Below are positions 1-19,502 of a stretch of DNA of 48,224 bases, one piece after another (positions within the stretch are counted from its first letter, which is position 1; each line of letters starts with the position of its first letter). The stretch is from positions 1-48,224 of the forward strand of contig JAGBBH010000025.1 of the NCBI GenBank assembly GCA_017938505.1, given 5' to 3'. The notes beneath the pieces were generated by a model. That model searched no databases. It was given only the letters and a program-made list of their open reading frames with translations, and was not told the DNA's origin. This DNA is from Clostridia bacterium (GTDB taxonomy: Bacteria; Bacillota; Clostridia; Christensenellales; UBA1242). The translations under genes and the position numbers were made by a program.

Positions 1-174
1 ATTGACAGATTAAGATATTTCATTGGAGATACTTATAGTGCTGAAATTTATAGAATAGATGGTTACGGAAATCTTGAAAATGTTACATCAGAAGATTTAA
101 AAGATTTGTGTGATGACTTAATTGATGAATTAAGGAGACAAATACAGACCTTAAAAGATAGTGAGATGTCGTAG
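1..174 (+). CDS. 3' end of hypothetical protein (partial)
   Basis: Frame 1 is open from the window start (IDRLRYFIGDTYSAEIYRIDGYGNLENV...DSEMS) to TAG at 172-174. Confidence 0.6.
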   Translation: MDRLRYFIGDTYSAEIYRIDGYGNLENVTSEDLKDLCDDLIDELRRQIQTLKDSEMS

Positions 175-338
175 TCGGTTTTTGTTCTATTTTTTGTTTT
201 TCAACTATATATTATAACAGGATTGAATGTTCGTTTAATCTTACAAATAGGGGTGTAGGATATAACAGGATTTCTATCCATTTACGAATGTTTTAGAAAG
301 AAATTTAAAATAAGGCAAAAAAAATAAGGTTTGAAACC

Positions 339-704
339 TTATTTTGGAAATTTAACTATTGAATTTATAGCATTTTGAAAATCTTTGTCGTTGATGTATC
401 TATCTGCAAAGTCTTTGAAATCGCAGTTTCTTTGATATTCTTGAATAACTCTTTGTTCACTAGGGGTTAAAGCTTTTGTATTGTCTAAACCGAATAGTGT
501 AAGAAGTGATATGTTCATTATCTCACAAAGAGTTGGTAAAAGAGAAATATCAGGAAGACAAACACCTTTACGCCAACGCTTAACAGAAGTGTCGGATACT
601 CCAAGTCGTTTTGCTAGTGAAACGCTTGTCTGTTCAGGGTGTTCTTTAAACCATTTTTCAATGTTATTACAAATATTGAGTTTAATGTTATTTTCGCTAT
701 TCAT
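339..704 (-). CDS. XRE-family helix-turn-helix transcriptional regulator
   Basis: SLAKRLGVSDTSVKRWRKGVCLPDISLLPTLCEIMNISLLTL is a typical HTH_3 signature; divergent from the recombinase operon. Confidence 0.9.
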   Translation of the reverse strand: MNSENNIKLNICNNIEKWFKEHPEQTSVSLAKRLGVSDTSVKRWRKGVCLPDISLLPTLCEIMNISLLTLFGLDNTKALTPSEQRVIQEYQRNCDFKDFADRYINDKDFQNAINSIVKFPK

Positions 705-745
705 AAGATTAGTATAGTTTTTTTTCGGCCATTTGTCAATCGATT

Positions 746-826
746 ACGGACTAAAATAGTATGTTTCTTAAATTAAACATACTAAAATAGTTGACAACGA
801 CAAATAAACGGACTATAATAGTCCGT
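746..826. promoter_or_regulatory. SigA promoter of recombinase operon overlapped by three operator-like sites
   Basis: TTGACA 791-796, 17 bp, TATAAT 814-819. Palindrome ACGGACTAT-A-ATAGTCCGT at 808-826, with variants at 746-764 and 777-795. Confidence 0.8.
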
Positions 827-885
827 AGATAAAGTCAAATAGACTATATTATTCAATAGTTAATTCCATTGCCGAAAGGAGTGTA

Positions 886-1080
886 ATGGAAGAAATTAAA
901 GAAACAAACAAAATTGAGCAACCTTTATCAGAGGAAAATGTAAAAATTTATAGAATTGATGGAAGTGTTGTTCGTGTTAAAAGAGAATTTTCACATGGAG
1001 GAACAAATATTCTTGAAAGAGTTATGTGTCTTTTATTAGACATACTTGAACAAGAAAACCAAAAAGAAATTACAAGTTAA
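886..1080 (+). CDS. Small element-encoded protein (possible recombination accessory factor)
   Basis: AAGGAG RBS; first gene of the recombinase operon. Function inferred from position only. Confidence 0.65.
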   Translation: MEEIKETNKIEQPLSEENVKIYRIDGSVVRVKREFSHGGTNILERVMCLLLDILEQENQKEITS

Positions 1081-1105
1081 AATCAGCGAAAGAGGAGGTT
1101 AAAAT

Positions 1106-2743
1106 TTGGAAAATCAAAATTGTAGAGTTGCTATCTATTGCAGATTATCAAGAGAAGATGGAAATGAAGAAAGTCAATCAATTTCTAGCCAAAAAGAAAT
1201 CTTGACAGATTATGTAACTAAACAAGGCTGGAATATTGTTGATATTTATATTGACGATGGCTTTTCAGGAACTAATTTTGAAAGACCAGATTTTAAAAGA
1301 CTTCTCGTTGATATTGAAATTGGGAAAATTGATATAGTAATAACCAAAGACTTATCAAGACTTGGTCGTAATTATATTCAAACTGGATATTATACAGAAG
1401 AATTTTTCCCAGAACATAATGTAAGATACATTGCATTAAATGATGGGTTTGATACTTCACAAGAAGAAACAACGGATTTTGCACCATTCAAAAATATAAT
1501 AAACGAATGGTATGCAAAGGATATTTCAAAAAAGATAAGGTTTACGCTTGATAATAAAGCAAAGAATGGAGACCCAAGAAATACTGTCTTTCCTATATTT
1601 GGATATGCTTATAATGAAAATTATGAGAGAATACCAGACCCGGAAACAGCGCCAATTGTTCAACTTATTTATAAGAAATATGTCGAAATGGGTTCATCTG
1701 TTAAAGTAGCGAGATATTTAAAAGAACAAAAAATTAAAATACCACGTTATTATAATGCTATCAAATATAATTACAACAAGAAAAAAGTTCTGGAAATGTC
1801 GGAAGATGAATTAACTACATGGAGACCAGATGGAATAAGGGAATTGATTGAAAGAGAAGAATATCTTGGTGTATATAAAACAGCTCAATCAACATCTATT
1901 AGTTTTAAAATTAAAAAGAGAAGTGATAATAAGGATTGCTATCGTTTTGAAAACAGATATGAACCTTTGATTGATAGAGAAACTTGGGAATGTGCAAACA
2001 ATTTAAGAACAAGGACACGTTCTGGTGCTATTCCAATGGAAGAAAACAAATTGAAAGGGTTGGTTGTTTGTGAGAATTGTGGCTCTCCAATGAGATTTGA
2101 AAGAAGAATAAATTTAGCACATAATACTTATGATTATAGGTATTTTTGTAAAACTACAAAATCAAATAATTGTTATGCCATAAATTCAACGCCAGTTTAT
2201 ATTTTGCTTAATGTTGTAGAAAGTGAGATTTCTGATTTAAGAAAGGTAATACTTGAACATCAAGAGGAGTTTATAGAATTTTCAAAAAAATATGATAGAA
2301 GAACTAGAAATATCAAGACAAACTATGAACTTGATTTGGAAAAATTTATAAAAAGGAATGTTGAGATTGATAGGTTTATTCAAAAACTTTTTGAAGATAA
2401 CGCAAAGGGTTTAATACCAGACTCAACATTTCAAATGATGATGGAAAAGTATAAAAAAGAAAAAAGCTTAATTGAAGATGAAATTAGAGATTTGACAAGA
2501 AAACAACAAAGAGAACTTTCAACACCAACAAATGAAAAAAATGCAAATGTATTTTTGGAGAAATTAAAAAGTATTTCAGTTAATGAACTTATGGAACCTA
2601 ATAATCTACGTAAAATCATTGATAAAATTACAGTTAAGTCCAGCAAAATAAATAATTCAAATAAAAATAGGATATTTGATATAACGATTTATTACGCTAA
2701 TTGTAACGAAATTATAAAGGAATTTATGACTTATGAGAAATAG
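1106..2743 (+). CDS. Large serine recombinase 1 (resolvase + recombinase + Zn-ribbon + coiled coil)
   Basis: YCRLSRED catalytic motif, DDGFSG, RP, KDLSRLGRN, PIFGY, CENC zinc ribbon; GGAGG RBS with TTG start. Confidence 0.95.
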   Translation: MENQNCRVAIYCRLSREDGNEESQSISSQKEILTDYVTKQGWNIVDIYIDDGFSGTNFERPDFKRLLVDIEIGKIDIVITKDLSRLGRNYIQTGYYTEEFFPEHNVRYIALNDGFDTSQEETTDFAPFKNIINEWYAKDISKKIRFTLDNKAKNGDPRNTVFPIFGYAYNENYERIPDPETAPIVQLIYKKYVEMGSSVKVARYLKEQKIKIPRYYNAIKYNYNKKKVLEMSEDELTTWRPDGIRELIEREEYLGVYKTAQSTSISFKIKKRSDNKDCYRFENRYEPLIDRETWECANNLRTRTRSGAIPMEENKLKGLVVCENCGSPMRFERRINLAHNTYDYRYFCKTTKSNNCYAINSTPVYILLNVVESEISDLRKVILEHQEEFIEFSKKYDRRTRNIKTNYELDLEKFIKRNVEIDRFIQKLFEDNAKGLIPDSTFQMMMEKYKKEKSLIEDEIRDLTRKQQRELSTPTNEKNANVFLEKLKSISVNELMEPNNLRKIIDKITVKSSKINNSNKNRIFDITIYYANCNEIIKEFMTYEK

Positions 2744-4223
2744 AGCAGTGATATATGCACGTCTTTCAAGAGAAGATGAAAATAAGATTGATGGAAATAC
2801 GGAATCAAGAAGTATTGAAAATCAAATTGAAGGTTTATCACTATATGCAAAAGAAAATGGCTTTCAAATTGTCGATATTTACTATGATGATGGTTATAGT
2901 GGTGGAACAATGGAAAGGCCAGCAATGCAAAAACTTCTTAATGATTTAAAACTAAAAAAATTTGATATTATTTTAGTAAAAGATATTTCCAGATTAGGAA
3001 GGTCTTTGCATAGAGTAGGTAATTTAATTGAAAAAATATTTCCAGAGAATAATATCAGAGTGATATCTGTAAATGATAAGTATGATAGTGAAACATACAA
3101 GCAAAACGAGTCCATTGTTTTAAGAAGTTTTTTAAATGACTACTACCTAAAAGAATTTAGAAAAAAGTGTAGGAAAGCGAGAGAACATTACGCACACACA
3201 AAACACTTAAATTATTATCCTAAATATGGTTACAATTTTGATAAAGATAAAAATGAAATAATAGATGAATATTCTGCTGGTATAGTAAAGGAAATATTTG
3301 AACTTGTTGGAATTAAAAAACTCAATCCTTATCAAGTTGCTCGGAAACTAAATCAAGATGGTGTTTTAACACGTTCAAGGTATGCAACCGAAGTATTAGG
3401 CCTTAAAGGCTTAAATAAAGTTCCAGCAAAAGAATGGAATGCTTGCAAAGTTCACGAGGTTGTTAGTGATTATGAATATTGTGGTCATTCTATAAATTGG
3501 GTTTGCCATAAGAAAGAAGACTGGATTTTGCTGAAAAACACGCACAAAGCAATAATTGATGAAGATTTATATAATCTAGCTCAACAAGCAATAAAAGAGC
3601 GTTCTTACTTGGCAAAACATAATAATGAAAGACCTAATCATATTGGAAAGTTGATTTTCGATAGGGAATTTCCAAATAGGAATTATTTGTATTGCAGACA
3701 CAGACGAAATCCAGAAACATCATATTATTTTTCCAGATACTCTCGTAAGAAGGTTAAATGTTCTATATTAGAAGATGTTGTCTATAATGATATTATAAAT
3801 ATAATTCAACAATGTATAGAGAACCCAGAAAGATTGTATAATTACTATAAAGTAAAATTATTTAATGGCAAAGAATATCGAAAGGATAAAATAGAAGATA
3901 GCCTTAAACTTGCTAATGAAGCCTATTCTAAACTTATAGAAAACTATTATAATCAAACCATAACAGAATTAGAATTTAAGAAAAAATCTACTAAAATGAT
4001 TGATGTTATTCATGAATTAGAAAATCAATTAAAGGATTGCAAGGATAACCAAATTGTGATAAAGACGTTTGATATAAAATTCAAAAGATTTTTGGAACAA
4101 ATAAAGAACATTCCACAGAATAAACTTGATGTAATAAGAATGGCGGTTGATAGGATTTATGTTGAAAGATGTTGTGGATATAATGATTTTGATATTACTA
4201 TAAAATATAAATTTGAAATTTGA
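2733..4223 (+). CDS. Large serine recombinase 2
   Basis: YARLSRED, DDGYSG, ERP, KDISRLGR, PKYGY, HKAIIDEDLY; overlaps the stop of recombinase 1. Confidence 0.93.
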   Translation: MRNRAVIYARLSREDENKIDGNTESRSIENQIEGLSLYAKENGFQIVDIYYDDGYSGGTMERPAMQKLLNDLKLKKFDIILVKDISRLGRSLHRVGNLIEKIFPENNIRVISVNDKYDSETYKQNESIVLRSFLNDYYLKEFRKKCRKAREHYAHTKHLNYYPKYGYNFDKDKNEIIDEYSAGIVKEIFELVGIKKLNPYQVARKLNQDGVLTRSRYATEVLGLKGLNKVPAKEWNACKVHEVVSDYEYCGHSINWVCHKKEDWILLKNTHKAIIDEDLYNLAQQAIKERSYLAKHNNERPNHIGKLIFDREFPNRNYLYCRHRRNPETSYYFSRYSRKKVKCSILEDVVYNDIINIIQQCIENPERLYNYYKVKLFNGKEYRKDKIEDSLKLANEAYSKLIENYYNQTITELEFKKKSTKMIDVIHELENQLKDCKDNQIVIKTFDIKFKRFLEQIKNIPQNKLDVIRMAVDRIYVERCCGYNDFDITIKYKFEI

Positions 4224-4246
4224 CCAACAATAGTTGGTCTTTTTTT
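4222..4246 (+). terminator. Intrinsic terminator after recombinase operon
   Basis: GACCAAC-aata-GTTGGTC stem followed by a T7 run. Confidence 0.8.
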
Positions 4247-4285
4247 ATTATATAGGAATATATAAATGTCTATTATAATAATATG

Positions 4286-4339
4286 TTATATACACCTAAC
4301 TTGGTAAAACAGCCCTTTTACCTATTAGGGTGTAGATAA
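4286..4339. repeat. attP-like 54-bp imperfect palindrome
   Basis: Gapless inverted repeat with 20 of 27 positions complementary, centred on GC at 4312-4313. Confidence 0.7.
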
Positions 4340-4368
4340 AGAACGGAAAAATGGATATAAATCGACTT

Positions 4369-4396
4369 TTATCTACACTTAAATGGGCAAAACAGG
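4369..4396 (+). other. Putative att junction (element half-site joined to PBP gene)
   Basis: 4369-4395 matches the left arm 4286-4312 at 22/27. The equivalent central dinucleotide is GG at 4395-4396, in the Gly codon of KTG. Confidence 0.65.
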
Positions 4397-4802
4397 AACA
4401 GCACAAAAATATGATGAAAATGGTCGCATTGCAAGTGGAAAATATATTTCGAGTTTCATCGGAACATATCCTGCAAACGAACCACAATATTTGTTTATGA
4501 TTTTGGTTGATCAGCCAAGTGCGGGAGCATATTATGGTGCAATAGTTGCCGCACCTTATGGAAAGTCTTTTTTTGAAAAACTCTTTGATTTCTATAACCT
4601 TCCGAAAGACGACACTTCAATTGTTTTGGAAGAAGTCGTTATGCCAGATTTGGTAGGTTATTCTCTTGCAAACGCGTTGGCAGAACTAAAGAAACTGGGA
4701 ATAGACTATGAAATTGATGGAGAGGGTTCAAGCATAAAAAAACAACTTCCCCCGGCAGGAGTAAAGATAAAAAAGGGAGATAAAATTTTGCTGATAACAT
4801 AA
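4383..4802 (+). pseudogene. 3' fragment of interrupted class B penicillin-binding protein (SpoVD/FtsI-like): end of transpeptidase domain + PASTA
   Basis: Begins at GKTGTAQK (PBP motif 3), then YISSFIG..P...P, YYGAIVAAP and a PASTA domain VVMPDLVGYS...QLPPAG. No SxxK/SxN part upstream. Confidence 0.85.
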
Positions 4803-4858
4803 AAAAACAATAAGAAAAATTTGTTGATTTAATGTTTATATTGTTATATAATAAATAT

Positions 4859-5587
4859 ATGTGGACATACATTTTAATTGGTGTTGGAGTTGGTGTTGGA
4901 TTGCTGCTTTGCTTTGCTTTGGCGGTGGCGAGTTTTTCTTTTTCAAATTTCAAAGAAAAACAAAAAGAACTTCAAACAAAATCAATTTCCTATGGAATAA
5001 CTGTTTCAGAGTTTATTAAAGAAGTCAACAGACAGATTTTTGGAGGACAACTTCATAGAACATTTTGTGAGCAAGATAAGGACCATTACAGTTCAAATGT
5101 AATTTCTCTCAGTGTGTCAACTTACAATTCAAATTCAATTGTTTCTTTTGCCACAACGGCACACGAACTTGGTCATGCAAAACAAGACTATTCAACAAAG
5201 AAACTGCAAACTTTGTGGAAACTTAAAAATTCTTCTCGTGTTTGTGGTTGGTTCTTTATGCCACTTATTGTTGTAGGATTTGTTCTAAGTTTGCTGACAA
5301 TTTTTCAAATCATTCAACAGCAATTCGTTTTCTACATTGGAGTTGGCATTTTGGGACTTGCAGTTGTGTTGCTCCTTTTTTCGATTTTTCTGAAAATTAA
5401 GGAGATTTCCATTGAAAAAGAAGCATCAACAATTGGTTTGCAATTTCTGAAATCTTTTATGACAGAAAAAGAACTTAAAAGTTGCAAAGATTTTCTTGAC
5501 AGTGCAAGATTTACCTACTGGGCGGCTTTTTTTAGGGGCTTGCTCGGTTGGACTTTTTTGACAAACAAGGAAAGTATGTTTAAGTGA
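4859..5587 (+). CDS. Membrane zinc metallopeptidase (YugP/Zn_peptidase_2-like)
   Basis: AHELGHAKQD HExxH motif, downstream EKEAS, ARFTY; TM segments. Start placed at ATG 4859, 7 nt after TATAAT. Confidence 0.8.
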   Translation: MWTYILIGVGVGVGLLLCFALAVASFSFSNFKEKQKELQTKSISYGITVSEFIKEVNRQIFGGQLHRTFCEQDKDHYSSNVISLSVSTYNSNSIVSFATTAHELGHAKQDYSTKKLQTLWKLKNSSRVCGWFFMPLIVVGFVLSLLTIFQIIQQQFVFYIGVGILGLAVVLLLFSIFLKIKEISIEKEASTIGLQFLKSFMTEKELKSCKDFLDSARFTYWAAFFRGLLGWTFLTNKESMFK

Positions 5588-5595
5588 TAAAATAA

Positions 5596-5623
5596 AAAAA
5601 GCAAATTGATTAATTTGCTTTTT
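5596..5623. terminator. Bidirectional terminator
   Basis: AAAAAGCAAATT-gatt-AATTTGCTTTTT between convergent genes. Confidence 0.6.
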
Positions 5624-6506
5624 CTTTTTCTGTGTTGGATTTTGTGTTTTGATAAGAGTTATCAACTCTCCAAGGAGTCGAAAGCATATCAGATGCACTT
5701 ACATTGTCAAGGGTGGCATTGATTGCGTTTTCAGTTAAAATTAGTGGTGTGTGAATTTTGCTTGAAGTGGTTACGAATGGATATTTTTCTTCTGCAAATG
5801 GTGTGTAAATTTGTGTTGGGAGAGTTGTTGTGTCTTTTGAAAATCTGAAACAAAGACTTTGTTGCAATGGTGCGTCTTTTCCGAAACTTGATGCATTTCT
5901 TCCAAAACAAACCTCTTTATTTTTGATTCCTTCAAGAATCGCGGAGTGGAGTTCATAGGTGTTGTTTATCAGTTTGTAAAGGTGTTGGCTTGTGCGCATT
6001 TGACATTCAACAGCATTTGCAAAAGAGCAAACTTCCGCAGAAGCTTCTTCATCTCTGTCAAGGTCATAAACATTGCTTCTGCAAATTTGCATTCTTTTCT
6101 TGTGAAATTTTCCATTGTGTTCAAACATAGTGAATAAGCAATAGCCATAACCAGATTTTTCTTCTTCAGGAACGGGAATTTTGAGTTCTTGACATTGGAG
6201 ATATTCATATTTGTCTTTCCCGCTGCCGATTAGAAACTCATAACTTTCAAGTTTTCCATTGATTCTGTTGATTATATACAAATTGTCATTGCAAATGGCA
6301 AATTCTCTTGTTTGTTGAAAGATTGTATCAAAGTTTGAAGAAACATATTTGTCAGTTACCTCAATTTCATAAAAAGAGTTGTTGGCTTTCATGATTAAAA
6401 ATTTTGACATTGCGTTTTCTTTGAGAGTAGTTCCTTCTTTTGTTAAACCATATTGTTTTGATTTTGCTCTAAAAAGATTTTTAATGTGTCGTTTTTCTTC
6501 TGTCAT
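5610..6506 (-). CDS. Hypothetical protein
   Basis: 298-aa ORF with AGGAG RBS; no motif recognised. Confidence 0.75.
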   Translation of the reverse strand: MTEEKRHIKNLFRAKSKQYGLTKEGTTLKENAMSKFLIMKANNSFYEIEVTDKYVSSNFDTIFQQTREFAICNDNLYIINRINGKLESYEFLIGSGKDKYEYLQCQELKIPVPEEEKSGYGYCLFTMFEHNGKFHKKRMQICRSNVYDLDRDEEASAEVCSFANAVECQMRTSQHLYKLINNTYELHSAILEGIKNKEVCFGRNASSFGKDAPLQQSLCFRFSKDTTTLPTQIYTPFAEEKYPFVTTSSKIHTPLILTENAINATLDNVSASDMLSTPWRVDNSYQNTKSNTEKEKAN

Positions 6507-7890: not shown

Positions 7891-8727
7891 ATGCATTCAT
7901 GTGAAGGAACAGGAAAAAACATTGAACAAGCAATCAACAATGCATTGCTTGAACTTAAGGCAGCAAGAGAAGATGTTGACATCAAAATTTTAAGTGAAGG
8001 CGGATTTTTAAAGAAGGCAAAAGTTTTGGTTACAATTTCAGCCGATGCTGTTGAAAAATATGAAAAGAGAGAAAAGTTTAAAGAAGAACTTTCAAAAGAA
8101 GAAACAGACGAAGATTTTGCAGAAAACTTTATGAAAAGAAAAATTGAAACTGCAAAAGAAACAGAAGTCAAAGTTGAAGAAAAGGCAGAAGAACCAAAGC
8201 AAGAAAGAAAAATTCAAATTATCACCGATGAAGAATATGTTGCACCTAAAAAAGTTGAATCCGATGAAGTTATTGGAAAATTGACAGGAGAAGAATTTTT
8301 GCAAGGAGTCCTTTCTGCAATGGAATTGCAAGGAGAAATTGAAAAATTAGAAGATGACAGATTTGTTCGTTATGGGCTTACTGGCGAAAACTTGAACGAT
8401 TTAATTGGTTATCACGGAGAGTGTATGCTTGCGCTTTCTCATCTTATGAATGTTGCTTGCAAGAGTGAAAGCAAAAAAAGATTTGTTCTTGATGTTGAGC
8501 ATTACAGAGAAAAAAGAGCAGAGGCACTCACAGACCTTGCAAAAAAGGTTGCGGGCAAGGTTGCAAAAACTGGAAGATATCACAAGTTTGAACCTATGGA
8601 GGCAAGTGAAAGAAAAATCATTCACACAGCACTTCAAGAAGACGACAGAGTTACAACATTGAGCAAGGGGGAAGAACCTCGCAGATATTTGATTGTTTTT
8701 CCAAGAGAATATAGCGAAAGAGATTAA
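7891..8727 (+). CDS. jag: Jag/EloR (KhpB) RNA-binding protein
   Basis: Jag_N (GKNIEQAI..AL.EL), KH (LIGYHGE..AL), R3H (ERKIIH.AL, SKGEEPRR). Confidence 0.93.
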   Translation: MHSCEGTGKNIEQAINNALLELKAAREDVDIKILSEGGFLKKAKVLVTISADAVEKYEKREKFKEELSKEETDEDFAENFMKRKIETAKETEVKVEEKAEEPKQERKIQIITDEEYVAPKKVESDEVIGKLTGEEFLQGVLSAMELQGEIEKLEDDRFVRYGLTGENLNDLIGYHGECMLALSHLMNVACKSESKKRFVLDVEHYREKRAEALTDLAKKVAGKVAKTGRYHKFEPMEASERKIIHTALQEDDRVTTLSKGEEPRRYLIVFPREYSERD

Positions 8728-12136: not shown

Positions 12137-12835
12137 ATGAAAAATCTAAAAACAATATTTGAAAAATATGGAATTGGTTTAGATGAGTTGCAAGAAAAGA
12201 ATTTTTGCAGATATTTTAACCATATGGTTGAAACGAACAAGTTTTTAAATCTGACAGCCATAACAGAGGAAGATGAAGTTGTTGTCAAACATTTTTTGGA
12301 CAGTGTTTTGCCGAAAAACCTATTTAAAGACGGTGCAACGGTAATTGATGTTGGAAGTGGTGCGGGTTTTCCTGCATTGCCATTAAAGATTGTTCGTAAT
12401 GATTTGCAAATTTGTATGTTGGACAGTTTGAATAAAAGGGTTAATTTTTTAAACGAGGTAGTTGAAAAGTTGCGACTTAAAAATATTTTTGCAGTCCATT
12501 CCAGAGCAGAAGATTATGCAAAGACAAAAAGAGAAAGTTTTGATGTGGCAACTGCGAGGGCTGTGGCGAGTCTTGATACGCTTGTCGAGTATTTACTCCC
12601 TTTTGTAAAGATTGGGGGCTGTGCAATAATTTACAAGGCAGCAAAGTTGGCAGAAGAACTTGGGTTGGCAAAAAAAGCAATCGAAATACTTGGAGGAAAA
12701 ATTGACAAGATTGTAAATTTCAAAATAGAAGAAAATGATATTGAGAGAAATGTTCTTGTGATAAAAAAAATCAAGCAAACTCCTGTCAAATATCCTAGAG
12801 GAAAGAATCTCCCAAAGACGACTCCAATAAAATAA
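12137..12835 (+). CDS. rsmG: 16S rRNA m7G527 methyltransferase RsmG
   Basis: NLTAI, KHFLDS, DVGSGAGFP, ARAVA, YPR; synteny with mnmG. Confidence 0.97.
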   Translation: MKNLKTIFEKYGIGLDELQEKNFCRYFNHMVETNKFLNLTAITEEDEVVVKHFLDSVLPKNLFKDGATVIDVGSGAGFPALPLKIVRNDLQICMLDSLNKRVNFLNEVVEKLRLKNIFAVHSRAEDYAKTKRESFDVATARAVASLDTLVEYLLPFVKIGGCAIIYKAAKLAEELGLAKKAIEILGGKIDKIVNFKIEENDIERNVLVIKKIKQTPVKYPRGKNLPKTTPIK

Positions 12836-12908
12836 GCAAATATGTTTGCAACCAATTTAAAAACCACAAAAAATTTAACATAAATTGGTTTTTTGATTAA
12901 AGATTATA

Positions 12909-12946
12909 AAAAAATAAGCAAAAAGTTATAAAATTGCTTATTTTTT
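12909..12946 (+). terminator. Inverted repeat, probable terminator between rsmG and parA
   Basis: AAAAAATAAGCAA...TTGCTTATTTTTT followed by T-rich sequence. Confidence 0.55.
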
Positions 12947-12995
12947 CTTTATTTTTTTTTAAAATTTATGTATAATTTAACAAAGGAATAGGTGT

Positions 12996-13823
12996 ATGGG
13001 AAAAATTATTGCATTTGCCAACCAAAAGGGTGGCGTTGGAAAAACTACAACTTGTGTGAATGTAGCAACCTATATGGCACTTATGGACAAAAAAGTGCTG
13101 GTTCTTGATTTGGACCCTCAAGGAAATGCGACAACGGCAGTTGGAATCGAAAAAACAAAAGATTTGCTTACAATTTATGACCTAATTGGTGGTGAGTGTG
13201 CTTATGATGAGGTCATTAAGCCAACCATTATAGACAATCTTTATATAATTCCATCAACAATTGACCTTTCAGGTGCTGATGTTGAGTTAATTCAGATGCC
13301 TCAGAGAGAAAAAATCATTAAAAGAATTCTTGATGAGATAAAAGAAAGTTATGATTTCATACTTATTGACTGTCCTCCATCGTTGAATTTAATAACGGTC
13401 AACGCTTTAACTGCTTCTGACAGCGTGTTGATTCCAATTCAATGTGAATTCTTTGCGTTGGAAGGGTTGGCTCAGTTGATGAACACAATTAGGTTGATTA
13501 AACAACACCTCAATGCAGATTTGGATATTGAGGGTGTTGTAATGACAATGAAAGAAAAAAGATATAATCTCACTAATCAGGTTGCCAATGAAGTTATAAA
13601 ACTTTTTAACACAAAGGTGTATCTTACAACAATTCCAAGAAATGTAAGGTTGGCAGAGGCTCCAAGTCATGGCTTGCCAATTGCTCTTTACGATGCAAAT
13701 TCCAAGGGTGCAGAAGCATATTTGAGTTTGGCGGAAGAGATTATGAAAAGGAATAAAATTCCTTTTAAGAAGATTTCTAAGTTGAGAAAGATAAAGTTTA
13801 AGGGAGGAAACAATGATGAGTAG
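12996..13823 (+). CDS. parA: ParA/Soj ATPase
   Basis: NQKGGVGKTTT, DLDPQGNAT, DCPPSL, IPRNVRLAEAPS. Confidence 0.97.
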   Translation: MGKIIAFANQKGGVGKTTTCVNVATYMALMDKKVLVLDLDPQGNATTAVGIEKTKDLLTIYDLIGGECAYDEVIKPTIIDNLYIIPSTIDLSGADVELIQMPQREKIIKRILDEIKESYDFILIDCPPSLNLITVNALTASDSVLIPIQCEFFALEGLAQLMNTIRLIKQHLNADLDIEGVVMTMKEKRYNLTNQVANEVIKLFNTKVYLTTIPRNVRLAEAPSHGLPIALYDANSKGAEAYLSLAEEIMKRNKIPFKKISKLRKIKFKGGNNDE

Positions 13824-14751
13824 TAAAGGTCTTGGTCGAGGTCTTGAGGCGTTATTTGGAATATATAAAGAAGACGATAGTAATAAAAACATAACTACAC
13901 AAACAAAAGAAAGTTCTGGGGTTTTGCAAATTGATATAACAAAAATCAAACCAAATCCCAACCAACCAAGAAAGATTTTTGACGAAGAAGCATTGAAGGA
14001 TTTGGCGGCATCTATCAAAGTCCACGGAATTGTTCAGCCTATTGTGTTGAACAAAAGTAGCAATGGCGAATATCTTATCATTGCTGGAGAGAGAAGGTGG
14101 CGTGCGGCGAACTTGTGCGGTCTAAAAACTGTTCCTGCAGTAGTTAATAATTACACAGAAAAGCAAATCAAAGAAATAAGTATCATTGAAAACCTTCAAA
14201 GAGAAGATTTGAATCCTGTTGAGGCTGCAAGGGCGATTAAAGAGTTGATGGAAGAATACCAATTAACTCAAGAAACGGTTTCTGAGAGAATTGGAAAAAG
14301 TCGTTCCAATGTGGCGAATACATTGAGATTGCTCACTCTTGACCCTACAGTTTTAAATTTGGTGGAAAATGGGAAGGTTTCCGCAGGTCATGCGAGATGC
14401 TTGGTTGTTGTAGAAGATGTTAATCAACAGATTAAGATGGCGCAACTTGTCGCAACAAAAAATTTAAGTGTGCGCGACCTTGAAAAGATGGTAAAAAACT
14501 ACACAAATCCAACAAAAAAGGTTGTTGTCAAGTCAGAACAGTCTTTAGAGCTTAAAGAATTAATAAATCAGATGCAAAAAACATTTGCAACAAAGGTTTC
14601 GGCAATTGGAAATGATTCAAAAGGAAGAATATATATAGATTACTATACTAGAGATGACTTGGATAGAATTGCAGAACTTTTAGAGTTATTAAATAAAAAG
14701 GAAATGACCTTGCAAGACTTGCAAAATTACAATAAAAGAAAAGGCGTTTAG
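13813..14751 (+). CDS. parB: ParB/Spo0J chromosome partitioning protein
   Basis: GLGRGLEAL, PNQPRK, IIAGERRWRA, IENLQREDLNPVE. Confidence 0.97.
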   Translation: MMSSKGLGRGLEALFGIYKEDDSNKNITTQTKESSGVLQIDITKIKPNPNQPRKIFDEEALKDLAASIKVHGIVQPIVLNKSSNGEYLIIAGERRWRAANLCGLKTVPAVVNNYTEKQIKEISIIENLQREDLNPVEAARAIKELMEEYQLTQETVSERIGKSRSNVANTLRLLTLDPTVLNLVENGKVSAGHARCLVVVEDVNQQIKMAQLVATKNLSVRDLEKMVKNYTNPTKKVVVKSEQSLELKELINQMQKTFATKVSAIGNDSKGRIYIDYYTRDDLDRIAELLELLNKKEMTLQDLQNYNKRKGV

Positions 14752-19121: not shown

Positions 19122-19502
19122 TTATACAATGTCTTTGTATAATCCAAGGTTGTAATACTCAGCAACCAATCTTATTAATTCTCCTGAAGTCGGCTTATCG
19201 TTGAGTTCGTAGAGTTGAATGTTAAACATTTTGTTTAATTCTGAAAAGCTTTTATTTATAAAAGTATTTTCGATTGCGTGGCGTATGCTTCTTTCAACGC
19301 AATTATCTTTTTTAACTTCGAATTTTTTTCCTATTTCTATGTAAAGGCGTTTGCACAGGTTGTGAATAAGTGATGGATTTAAAACAACCAGTTCAATTGC
19401 ATAACATAAATAGTTAAATCCTGCCAAATCGCATCTTATGCCAATTCTGATTAATGCTAATTTAATAATATTTCTCATATTTTCTAATTCGTTATTGTCC
19501 AC
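19122..19502 (-). CDS. Stand-alone Spo0A C-terminal DNA-binding domain protein
   Basis: GFNYL..AI, KRLYIEIGKKF, VERSIRHAIE, KPTSGELI match Spo0A_C; no receiver domain; GTG start with AAGGGA RBS. Confidence 0.88.
   Translation of the reverse strand: MDNNELENMRNIIKLALIRIGIRCDLAGFNYLCYAIELVVLNPSLIHNLCKRLYIEIGKKFEVKKDNCVERSIRHAIENTFINKSFSELNKMFNIQLYELNDKPTSGELIRLVAEYYNLGLYKDIV

Follow-up and report, generated by a model that had tools for sequence, protein, structure and literature searches.

The first 4.4 kb of the window (the whole 48,224-nt contig JAGBBH010000025.1 of Clostridia bacterium assembly GCA_017938505.1) very probably belong to an ICE/IME of the large serine recombinase (LSR) type that is integrated at the glycine codon of the KTG motif in the sole class B PBP gene of the host, which is of the SpoVD type. 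Bases 1-4396 would constitute the right end of this element, comprising an HTH gene, an operon for a small protein and two recombinases, and attR, and serine recombination at a GG dinucleotide would have placed the element inside the KTG Gly codon. The features at this end of the window are as follows.

1 to 174, + strand: 3' end of an element ORF that is truncated at the contig start; the frame is open off the window start, and homologues likewise lie upstream of the HTH gene in loci L047 and L048
339 to 704, - strand: cI/Xre-type HTH regulator, probable element repressor, divergent from the recombinase operon
705 to 885, unstranded: divergent promoter/operator region, from promoter and operator patterns
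886 to 1080, + strand: gene for a small acidic 64-aa protein that opens the recombinase operon; candidate accessory factor or directionality factor
1106 to 2743, + strand: large serine recombinase 1 (Rec1), 545 aa; Pfam Resolvase (8.7e-28), Recombinase (7.2e-17), and Zn_ribbon_recom (1.6e-6)
2733 to 4223, + strand: large serine recombinase 2 (Rec2), 496 aa; Pfam Resolvase (1.7e-26) and Recombinase (1.3e-14); overlaps Rec1 by 11 bases
4222 to 4247, + strand: terminator-like hairpin with a T run after Rec2, from sequence pattern
4361 to 4394, unstranded: element arm of attR (left half of the deduced attP), from inverted-repeat pairing with the attL element arm on contig C90
4395 to 4396, unstranded: GG crossover dinucleotide, which supplies bases 1 and 2 of the KTG Gly codon, with a matching GG at C90 13933-13934
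4395 to 4802, + strand: 3' part of the interrupted class B PBP gene of the SpoVD type, covering the terminal stretch of the transpeptidase domain and PASTA
4832 to 5587, + strand: Zn-metallopeptidase gene of the host flank (Pfam Zn_peptidase_2, 2e-19), the synteny anchor of the empty site

A SpoVD-type class B PBP gene is split at its KTG motif

A preliminary description of this DNA reported two serine recombinases followed, about 160 bp on, by a PBP frame that starts at GKTGTAQK and contains a PASTA domain, and the ORFs and Pfam matches agree with it. The ORF at 4383-4802 encodes 139 aa with the N-terminus MGKTGTAQK, starts 160 bp beyond the stop codon of the second recombinase, matches only positions 237-296 of the 299 positions of Pfam Transpeptidase (E 1e-10), and contains a PASTA domain (E 4.6e-14). 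This profile coverage bears out the reported absence of the N-terminal part of the PBP from the window: the window spans an entire contig, and that contig starts inside the element. The ATG at 4383 is fortuitous: it is missing from other elements, and host DNA begins at the GG at 4395-4396. The window retains the last 136 PBP codons, which run from the KTG motif through the remainder of the transpeptidase domain and PASTA; compared with intact orthologues of 619-694 aa from the genus, this segment shows 57-78% identity to their C-termini.

The 5' half of the gene, which the preliminary description had expected at the other end of the element, is present on contig C90 of the same assembly (12412-13934), downstream of rsmH and an ftsL-like gene. 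It consists of the first 507 codons, with PBP_dimer and Transpeptidase profile positions 3-254. Joining of the halves in silico at the GG (4395-4396 and C90) restored the reading frame and gave a 642-aa product from 1929 nt, with the only stop codon at its end. The joined protein is 75% identical to the intact 643-aa orthologue of genome G019 over 643 aligned columns with one gap. G019 provides the empty site that had been sought in a relative: it is element-free and has an identical gene order around its intact PBP gene, including the Zn-metallopeptidase gene next after it. A second class B PBP was found neither in this assembly (a 92% complete metagenome bin) nor in 5 of 5 other element-bearing genomes, and exactly one class B PBP is encoded in each of the five genus genomes rated 100% complete.

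The SpoVD label was assigned from NCBIfam and PDB rankings. The intact G019 orthologue scored 579.4 bits with TIGR02214 (spoVD_pbp; profile positions 2-632 of 636) compared to 324 bits for the next model and, though TIGR02214 is its best model by 255 bits, it falls below the curated cut-off of 688 bits; the halves of the split gene scored 445.5 and 115.9 bits. The top PDB match was 7rcz, "Stage V sporulation protein D" (322 bits compared to 190 bits for the next). Moreover, the gene has the context in which, in the relevant passages of PMC10693644, dcw-encoded bPBPs of sporulating Firmicutes are interpreted as SpoVD: it belongs to a spore former, follows ftsL in the dcw cluster, and encodes a class B PBP that ends in a PASTA domain. 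The single SEDS gene scored 374 bits with SpoVE, below its cut-off of 449, and 369 bits with FtsW, above its cut-off of 337.5. On these profile scores, "SpoVD" appears to be the best label for a split gene that does not reach the curated family cut-off. The earlier judgement that the gene is probably spoVD and not ftsI holds insofar as SpoVD is the best family and structure match, but the dichotomy itself is inapplicable to what is the genus's only SEDS-partner PBP. None of the three outcomes that the preliminary description had named as contrary to its reading (lack of a 5' half, a second intact copy, or a non-sporulation PBP) was encountered.

Integration site and recombinase operon

The element is flanked by attL at C90 13933-13934 and attR at window 4395-4396, in the manner of an att-flanked integrase element. 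The deduced attP arms form an inverted repeat at 25 of 34 positions, compared to 5 of 34 for the host (attB) arms, and host DNA starts at this GG in all 18 attR sites of relatives (18/18).

By their predicted domains, Rec1 and Rec2 are both large serine recombinases. The catalytic Y-R-S residues of each protein are invariant in alignments of 14 sequences, as are four zinc-ribbon Cys residues of Rec1; Rec2 gave no zinc-ribbon match in Pfam and has no invariant Cys set in its 14 aligned sequences. Rec1 has a weak C-terminal match to DUF4368 (19.4 bits) that is below the cut-off. We suggest that Rec1 and Rec2 may act jointly, as CcrA and CcrB do. A complex prediction for Rec1 (150-545), Rec2 (150-496), and the small protein, all entered as alignments, scored 0.57, compared to 0.63 when an unrelated protein replaced Rec1, and thus speaks neither for nor against binding.

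The small protein of the window matched no Pfam family. In an ORF scan, 18 of 20 places had a homologous ORF of 42-71 aa immediately before Rec1; the homologue in L048, where the scan chose another frame, was found by tblastn, and no homologue was found in L066. Identity of the small protein with TnpW was rejected, with atlas scores of 0.80-0.82 that were under the bar and PF14202 present in 0 of 12 aligned members in a Pfam scan.

The HTH regulator gave weak Pfam matches to HTH_3 and HTH_26 (E 0.002-0.003, below the cut-off), and homologues occupy the same position in L047, L048, L051-L053, and L055-L057. A sigma-A-type promoter at 791-819 (+) matches the consensus at 12 of 12 positions (TTGACA-17-TATAAT), with its -10 box within a palindrome at 808-826, and a second promoter at 739-711 (-) matches at 11 of 12. 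The operator layout, with a ACTAAAATAGT-like sequence on the -35 box and a ACTATAATAGT-like sequence on the -10 box, recurs in L047, L051, L053, L055, and L057. We propose that the HTH protein would be a repressor that holds the recombinase operon off at the sigma-A promoter.

Related elements occupy the same target and move between hosts

Alignment with Rec2 identified 25 loci, and in 18 of them Rec1 and Rec2 are followed by the PBP 3' piece, a count that includes loci with Rec2 alone where the contig starts there. Four of the other seven end before the junction, and three are distant relatives that lack it. The PBP piece of the 18 loci begins at residues 1-5 of the 139-aa 3' ORF of the window, and in each of the 18 loci examined the two gene halves and the two recombinases are intact. 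Complete elements include one of 9.5 kb in G105, with both junctions on one continuous 79.6-kb contig, and those of 4.8-5.8 kb in L065, L058, and L062. The 148 genus genomes with a match include four assembled and two probable element carriers, and none of 400 further genomes sampled across the order had the element. In L058 and L062, a terminator-like hairpin, judged by eye, is present after attL.

Over 5745 nt, the elements of L058 and L062 are 98.99% identical, whereas their host flanks are only 64-72% identical. Likewise, the elements of L059 and L064 are 99.5% identical compared to 64-67% for the flanks, and those of L051 and L053 are 95.5% identical compared to 67-74%. Because near-identical elements are present in hosts with diverged flanks, the element has been recently mobile and has passed horizontally between hosts. 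A Logan contig from run X4 covers window positions 1700-4414 with two other letters, and one from run X12 covers 2908-4396 with none; both have almost no host side. Another 14 runs matched with a share of ~0.5. The preliminary description had proposed a candidate developmentally excised element; the near-identical copies beside diverged host flanks mark it as one of a horizontally mobile ICE/IME family and not as a developmental fixture. The argument that small elements with intact recombinases point to domestication by host selection was rejected, since the small elements are themselves near-identical across species.

The order of the element would be the C90 tail, contig C10, and the first 4.4 kb of the window. 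The C90 tail encodes a Y-family polymerase and YolD, and C10 encodes a MobL relaxase, a T4CP, a VirB4-like ATPase, a T4SS pilin, a primase, and a methylase. In L047 and L048, the sequence immediately preceding the window-start ORF is homologous to the last 2 kb of C10, and a contig from run X1 reaches 10.3 kb beyond the window start; the C10-window link consists of this synteny and of the X1 contig, which is known by its extent and not by its sequence. No overlaps of at least 15 bases were found between the C90 end, the window start, and other contig ends. The whole element is probably an integrative conjugative element spanning at least ~34 kb; its size and conjugative nature are only probable because the contig ends from the C90 tail through C10 to the window do not overlap. 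No relaxase, coupling, or type IV secretion genes were found in the relatives of 4.8-9.5 kb.

Fate of the split gene in carriers

Insertion of the element may be tolerated because the PBP would be unneeded for vegetative growth, as in Clostridioides difficile. We infer this dispensability from C. difficile, whose spoVD is dispensable for growth and which divides by a class A PBP (passages of PMC10693644), and from the existence of carriers. If so, a carrier cell would complete a spore only where the element is excised. Among the genes of this genome are those for Spo0A, SpoIVA, SpoIIID, and sigma-E/K-like factors.

It is possible, but doubtful, that the element is skin-like, such that excision in the mother cell rebuilds spoVD for cortex synthesis and the forespore keeps the element. 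The orthologue of the target acts in the mother cell, the organism has the sporulation genes named above, and SpoIVA is full-length in 5 of 5 other carriers tested. Excision would be exact and would rebuild the reading frame, as judged in silico. The precedents use the same enzyme class, including the non-phage, multi-recombinase gin element in gerE (part of PMC5595907). The gene halves and recombinases are intact in 18/18 loci; however, this intactness needs no host-level selection, because the elements are recently mobile between species and rare, which itself argues against a skin-like role. In L065, the operon for the small protein, Rec1, and Rec2 starts 19 nt past the stop codon of truncated spoVD with no terminator between, and the recombinase operon could be transcribed from the spoVD promoter. 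The hairpins of L058 and L062 stand against a skin-like role. Read-through transcription of the operon from spoVD was rejected as a general mechanism: L065 alone fits, and the spacers of L058, L062, and G105 have their own signals. In 13 of 13 loci, simple consensus patterns revealed no sigma-E/K-like promoter ahead of the small ORF, except for one sigma-K -10-like match in L058. The window instead carries a sigma-A promoter of consensus sequence together with operators and a divergent repressor gene, and the small protein is encoded in the operon that this promoter drives. The sigma-A promoter does not exclude a skin-like element, because the skinCd recombinase is itself sigma-A transcribed and only a small directionality factor is under sigma-E/SpoIIID control (passages of PMC5025042). 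Moreover, the excision product was not seen: 30-mers of the empty-site and circle junctions, with up to 3 mismatches, were absent from the whole assembly, and no joint or loose end at 4396 was present among the run-contig matches listed, where a depth of ~6-10 in the likely source run is silent on rare excision. With comparable reserve, we entertain the idea that a conjugative element and its stripped-down derivatives land in spoVD KTG codons and leave in the mother cell, so that recombination by the paired serine recombinases would gate cortex synthesis and spore completion.

Alternatively, the insertion could be a dead end in which spoVD is knocked out, carriers are asporogenous or losing sporulation, and excision is irrelevant to the host. 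We consider this unlikely. The strongly reduced genus genomes (0.6-1.5 Mb) and the failure to see an empty site in the assembly or among the run-contig matches listed are consistent with such a loss, but carriers keep intact sporulation signature genes, and both gene halves are open and conserved, although the insertions may be too recent for visible decay. An artefact, in which the recombinases and PBP were misassembled or the gene halves came from different organisms, might be feared of a 103-contig metagenome bin with 5.4% estimated contamination, in which C90 and the window lack physical linkage, but is highly improbable given the same recombinase-PBP junction in 18 independently assembled loci, both junctions on the single G105 contig, run contigs that cross the junction (X1 record 5 spans 4212-5940, and X4 record 30 passes 4414), and the end-to-end match of the joined halves to an intact orthologue.

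If the element does land in the spoVD KTG codons and leave in the mother cell, carriers in about twenty species would also show that these Clostridia grow and divide without a functional class B PBP. This would be a natural cell-division experiment: the only class B PBP gene of the genus is split, yet carriers were assembled from gut samples. Such carriers would fit the proposal, made in passages of PMC10693644, that many Clostridia divide by a class A PBP and use the dcw SEDS-bPBP pair for sporulation. The element would also offer a two-recombinase study system with a 2-bp core, arms of ~28-34 bp, a highly conserved coding motif as target, and a broad natural host range.

Comparison with known systems

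We found no description of a spoVD-splitting element in the literature searched; the main texts of PMC4191935 and PMC5595907 do not contain the word "spoVD" (0 occurrences each), and the supplementary tables of these papers and of PMC10693644 may include examples or the lineage. The gin element in gerE of Bacillus cereus ATCC 10987, as presented in parts of PMC5595907, resembles the window element in being non-phage, in having several serine recombinases that include a tandem pair, and in splitting the coding sequence of a sporulation gene; its att sites are palindromic with a central dinucleotide, and a small protein works with the gin recombinase. There, a third recombinase, GirC, and the 42-aa GirX excise gin during sporulation, and the tandem GirAB pair is dispensable and silent (PMC5595907). 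By contrast, the window element has the tandem pair only, a spoVD target, and an uncultured, small-genome Clostridia host.

The skin elements in sigK of B. subtilis and C. difficile and SP-beta in spsM are likewise a few to tens of kb in length, and their exact excision rebuilds a mother-cell gene. They are prophages or remnants with one recombinase, whereas the window element has two, and its full form looks conjugative. Unlike skin and SP-beta, the window element is demonstrably mobile between species at present, and sigma-E/SpoIIID control was not found by promoter scan.

Two co-transcribed large serine recombinases per site-specific element also characterize SCCmec (CcrA/CcrB), a likeness of layout only: Rec1 and Rec2 scored 75.8 and 65.6 bits with the CcrB model, compared to a cut-off of 900, which leaves them outside the CcrA/CcrB/CcrC families. 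SCC elements are not conjugative, and SCCmec has a different target, integrating at the end of rlmH/orfX without destroying the gene. Elements of the Tn4451/Tn5397 type (TnpX/TndX) are clostridial mobilizable or conjugative elements that are likewise moved by a large serine recombinase, and they use a GA/GG-type dinucleotide; the weak DUF4368 match of Rec1 is a further resemblance to them. They differ in having one recombinase and a lower target specificity, and we know of no sporulation-gene target among them.

As with the elements that intervene in sporulation genes (skin, SP-beta, vfbin, vrin, gin, and yin), the insertion appears to lie in the coding sequence of a sporulation gene, whose ORF is rebuilt in silico. 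The gene spoVD would join sigK, spsM, spoVFB, spoVR, gerE, and yabG among split spore genes, with a splitter that would be conjugative and not phage-derived.

Junctions of the element and in silico reconstitution of the split gene

Domain and ORF evidence bears out the preliminary description, which had read from the sequence two recombinases followed by a penicillin-binding protein (PBP) frame that starts at the KTG motif. The features concerned lie in the window, which is the whole of the 48,224-base contig C11, and on contig C90 of the same assembly:

Window 339-704, minus strand: divergent HTH gene, beyond the 64-aa ORF on its upstream side
Window 886-1080, plus strand: small ORF of 64 aa, upstream of Rec1
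Window 1106-2743, plus strand: large serine recombinase Rec1, 545 aa, with Resolvase, Recombinase, and zinc-ribbon domains (Pfam)
Window 2733-4223, plus strand: large serine recombinase Rec2, 496 aa, with Resolvase and Recombinase domains (Pfam)
Window 4383-4802, plus strand: PBP 3' frame, 139 aa, starting MGKTGTAQK, 160 bp past Rec2
C90 12412-13950: PBP 5' frame, 512 aa, 3' of rsmH and an ftsL-like gene, the start of the dcw cluster

Of the Pfam Transpeptidase profile, the 139-aa frame covers the final 60 positions only, and it then runs through a PASTA domain. Transpeptidase and PBP_dimer searches of the genome of the organism located the missing 5' part on C90; the 512-aa frame there passes through the KTG motif and stops four foreign codons later. 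Comparison of the two element-host junctions, attL on C90 and attR in the window, placed the crossover at a GG dinucleotide (C90 13933-13934; window 4395-4396) that forms the first two bases of the Gly codon of KTG. The preliminary description had called for a 5' half and for a check of joining at 4395-4396, and this join restores the frame in silico (1929 nt, 642 codons, one stop, terminal). The rejoined product aligns end to end, at 75% identity and with a single gap, with the orthologue of G019, a relative in which the gene is intact (643 aa). At the empty site of G019, a gene for a large membrane protein precedes rsmH, ftsL, and the PBP gene, and a Zn-peptidase gene follows; on C90 and in the window, these genes are found on either side of the break. 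Around GG, the element-side arms of attL and attR pair as an inverted repeat (25/34 positions, versus 5/34 for the host-side arms), which is the usual serine-integrase anatomy of attP versus attB. The element lies between attL and attR, its GG core falls among the KTG codons of the only class B PBP gene, and exact recombination would restore that gene.

Identity of the split gene

The best NCBIfam model for the intact orthologue is spoVD_pbp, which scores 579 bits over nearly the whole profile, below its curated cut-off of 688; the next model, pbp2_mrdA, scores 324. The N-terminal half of the PBP best matches the solved structure 7rcz, 'Stage V sporulation protein D' (322 bits versus 190 for the next match). 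The assembly (1.19 Mb, 103 contigs, rated 92% complete) contains only one other PBP, a class A protein of 764 aa on C21, and one SEDS gene, which adjoins mraY and has similar scores for SpoVE and FtsW. In 5/5 genus genomes rated 100% complete, the PBP complement is a single class B and a single class A enzyme; in 5/5 further element-bearing genomes, it consists of the split class B gene and one of class A, to which one genome adds an extra fragment. Sporulation genes in the genome include Spo0A, SpoIVA, a SpoIIID homologue, and sigma-E-like and sigma-K-like genes, and the sigma-K gene is uninterrupted. According to Shrestha et al. (PMC10693644), the dcw-encoded class B PBP and SEDS of sporulating Firmicutes are best read as SpoVD and SpoVE, a separate FtsW-FtsI pair is absent from many Clostridia, and C. 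difficile can grow without spoVD, its division relying on a class A PBP. Taken together, the profile and structure matches, the PBP and SEDS gene content, the sporulation genes, and these published points make spoVD the best label that the sequence offers for the split gene. The earlier assignment to spoVD therefore keeps its label, but the gene is not one of two paralogues; it is the only class B PBP of the genus. Carriers presumably tolerate the insertion because vegetative cells do not need the gene, and completion of the spore cortex would need the element out.

Two partial genes were seen elsewhere in these searches. A 47-aa ORF on C79 of the same assembly (8167-8292; locus L010 1468-1611, minus strand) is what remains of the C-terminal end of a second SEDS (FtsW/RodA/SpoVE) gene; it covers profile positions 310-351, has unrelated genes around it, and represents either a relic or a further split gene. 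In addition, a 126-aa ORF at window 19122-19502 (minus strand) consists of the Spo0A C-terminal DNA-binding domain only (86 bits), and is one of three such short paralogues in the genome (on C11, the window contig, C76, and C70), beside full-length Spo0A on C87.

Recombinase operon and its control region

The Rec1 and Rec2 genes overlap by 11 bases, and the two co-translated recombinases probably work as a pair. Between the HTH gene and the 64-aa ORF lies a sigma-A-type promoter match (12/12, at 791-819), whose -10 box is contained in a palindrome and whose -35 box is surrounded by similar half-palindromic repeats. Window 705-885 and the same region of five loci with related elements (L047, L051, L053, L055, and L057) have a common design, in which a ACTAAAATAGT-like palindrome on the -35 box and a ACTATAATAGT-like palindrome on the -10 box accompany a consensus sigma-A promoter. 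This promoter-operator layout is kept in six HTH-bearing elements, and the divergent HTH protein would be expected to repress the recombinase operon at the sigma-A promoter.

Extent and content of the element

Past the break, C90 encodes to its end a Y-family DNA polymerase, a YolD-like protein, a WYL-WCX regulator, a BspA-type LRR protein, and a TfoX_N protein. In L047 and L048, the DNA that immediately precedes the window-start ORF is homologous to the last 2 kb of C10, another contig of the assembly. C10 is 24.4 kb long and has 20 co-oriented genes, among them those for an S24/LexA-like repressor, MobL relaxase, type IV coupling protein, T4SS pilin, VirB4-like ATPase, primase, and cytosine methylase. 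A contig from the likely source run reaches 10.3 kb beyond the first base of the window. Most economically, the C90 tail, C10, and window 1-4396 are probably parts of one integrative conjugative element (ICE) of about 34 kb or more; no overlaps of contig ends that would link the three were found.

The S24/LexA-like repressor (C10 301-933) and the Y-family polymerase with the YolD-like protein (C90 14063-15647) make up an element-borne SOS-type cassette, which hints at DNA damage as the induction signal of the element. Outside the element, window 21933-47612 (plus strand) is a single ORF of 8559 aa.

Relatives at the same site and recent transfer

The PBP 3' piece has a match in 148 of 154 species representatives of the genus. 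It lies within a 135-140 aa frame in six of them, with Rec1/Rec2 orthologues assembled beside it in the genome of the window, G105, G153, and G022, and with contigs that end exactly at the site in G082 and G121. These ends (contig C4 of G082, 64250; contig C10 of G121, 29386) are within two codons of the KTG site, which suggests that an element there was left unassembled or unbinned, or that occupied and empty alleles are mixed. Seven other frames are short; the six at contig edges (four checked directly, two from coordinates) are of another kind, and the seventh is in G127; all remaining rows have frames of 619-694 aa. The G105 element is whole on one 79.6-kb contig, measures 9.5 kb, and encodes a polymerase, YolD, a 1127-aa LRR protein, the small ORF, Rec1, and Rec2; no transfer genes were found in it.

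A Rec2 alignment scan of 185,579 species genomes gave 25 loci, in 18 of which the recombinases are followed by the PBP 3' piece (three being the same places as in G105, G153, and G022); four end earlier, and three are distant relatives without the piece. Host sequence begins at the same GG in 18/18 loci, and what lies to the left of GG varies from element to element. Rec1 and Rec2 are full length in all 18 and retain their catalytic residues, which are invariant in the 14 aligned sequences of each; four zinc-ribbon cysteines are invariant in Rec1, and the aligned Rec2 sequences have no invariant Cys set. Complete small elements of about 4.8 kb (L065) and 5.8 kb (L058 and L062) each hold the small ORF, Rec1, Rec2, and one or two cargo genes, and this three-gene module is the constant core of the family. 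The family is sporadic, since Rec1 orthologues (E 1e-100 or better) were absent from all 400 other genomes sampled from the order. Three assemblies have two copies or variants of the module on different contigs (L054 and L061; L047 and L048; L052 and L055), and in one of the three cases the two PBP 3' pieces differ. Either the bins are mixed or a single sample contained two carriers.

Part of window 3300-5500 was present in 20 of 24 public runs listed, two of which hold nearly all of it (one perhaps the source) and 16 about half. When two half-holding runs were mapped to the window, the element half was present in both and the host side was almost uncovered. One run contig spans 1700-4414 with two mismatches before passing into unlike sequence; that of the second run spans 2908-4396 with no mismatches and ends exactly at the core. 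Pairs of loci gave a similar picture: 98.99% identity over 5745 nt of element in L058 and L062 (host flanks 64-72%), 99.5% in L059 and L064 (64-67%), and 95.5% in L051 and L053 (67-74%). These near-identical elements amid diverged or uncovered host flanks imply that the family, including its small members, moved between species recently. Intact recombinases in the small elements had been considered as a sign of host selection for excision; this argument falls because those members, too, moved recently.

Possible sporulation-linked excision and comparison with known systems

The preliminary description had proposed a skin-like element, cut out in the mother cell during sporulation so that spoVD is rebuilt. 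We consider this reading possible but less likely than not. The target is a mother-cell gene in spore formers, the frame is reconstituted exactly, and there are precedents with the same enzymes, such as gin, described in PMC5595907 as a non-phage element with three serine recombinases. However, the element is rare and recently transferred, and neither an empty-site nor a circle junction occurred in the assembly or among the run-contig rows shown, in which depth was low and rare variants were dropped. Evidence on the control of the operon is likewise divided. In L065 it starts 19 nt past the truncated spoVD without a terminator, and in skinCd, according to PMC5025042, a small directionality factor is under sporulation control and the recombinase is sigma-A transcribed. 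By contrast, simple patterns revealed no sigma-E/K-type promoter before the small ORF at 13 loci, apart from a single match in L058 to a sigma-K-like -10 box, and the sigma-A operon here includes the small protein gene.

In the literature searched, supplementary tables aside, we found no description of spoVD as the target of such an element. Two noteworthy features are the insertion site, in the catalytic KTG codon of the only class B PBP, and the conjugative appearance of the full form; moreover, carriers are in effect naturally occurring knock-outs and are informative about division in these Clostridia. The gene layout of Rec1-Rec2 is like that of CcrAB, but when family membership was tested the pair fell outside CcrAB. 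Serine-recombinase ICEs and IMEs that integrate site-specifically within genes are a known kind (PMC5704250), and the sporulation-gene intervening elements named in PMC4191935 and PMC5595907 are skin, SP-beta, vfbin, vrin, gin, and yin.
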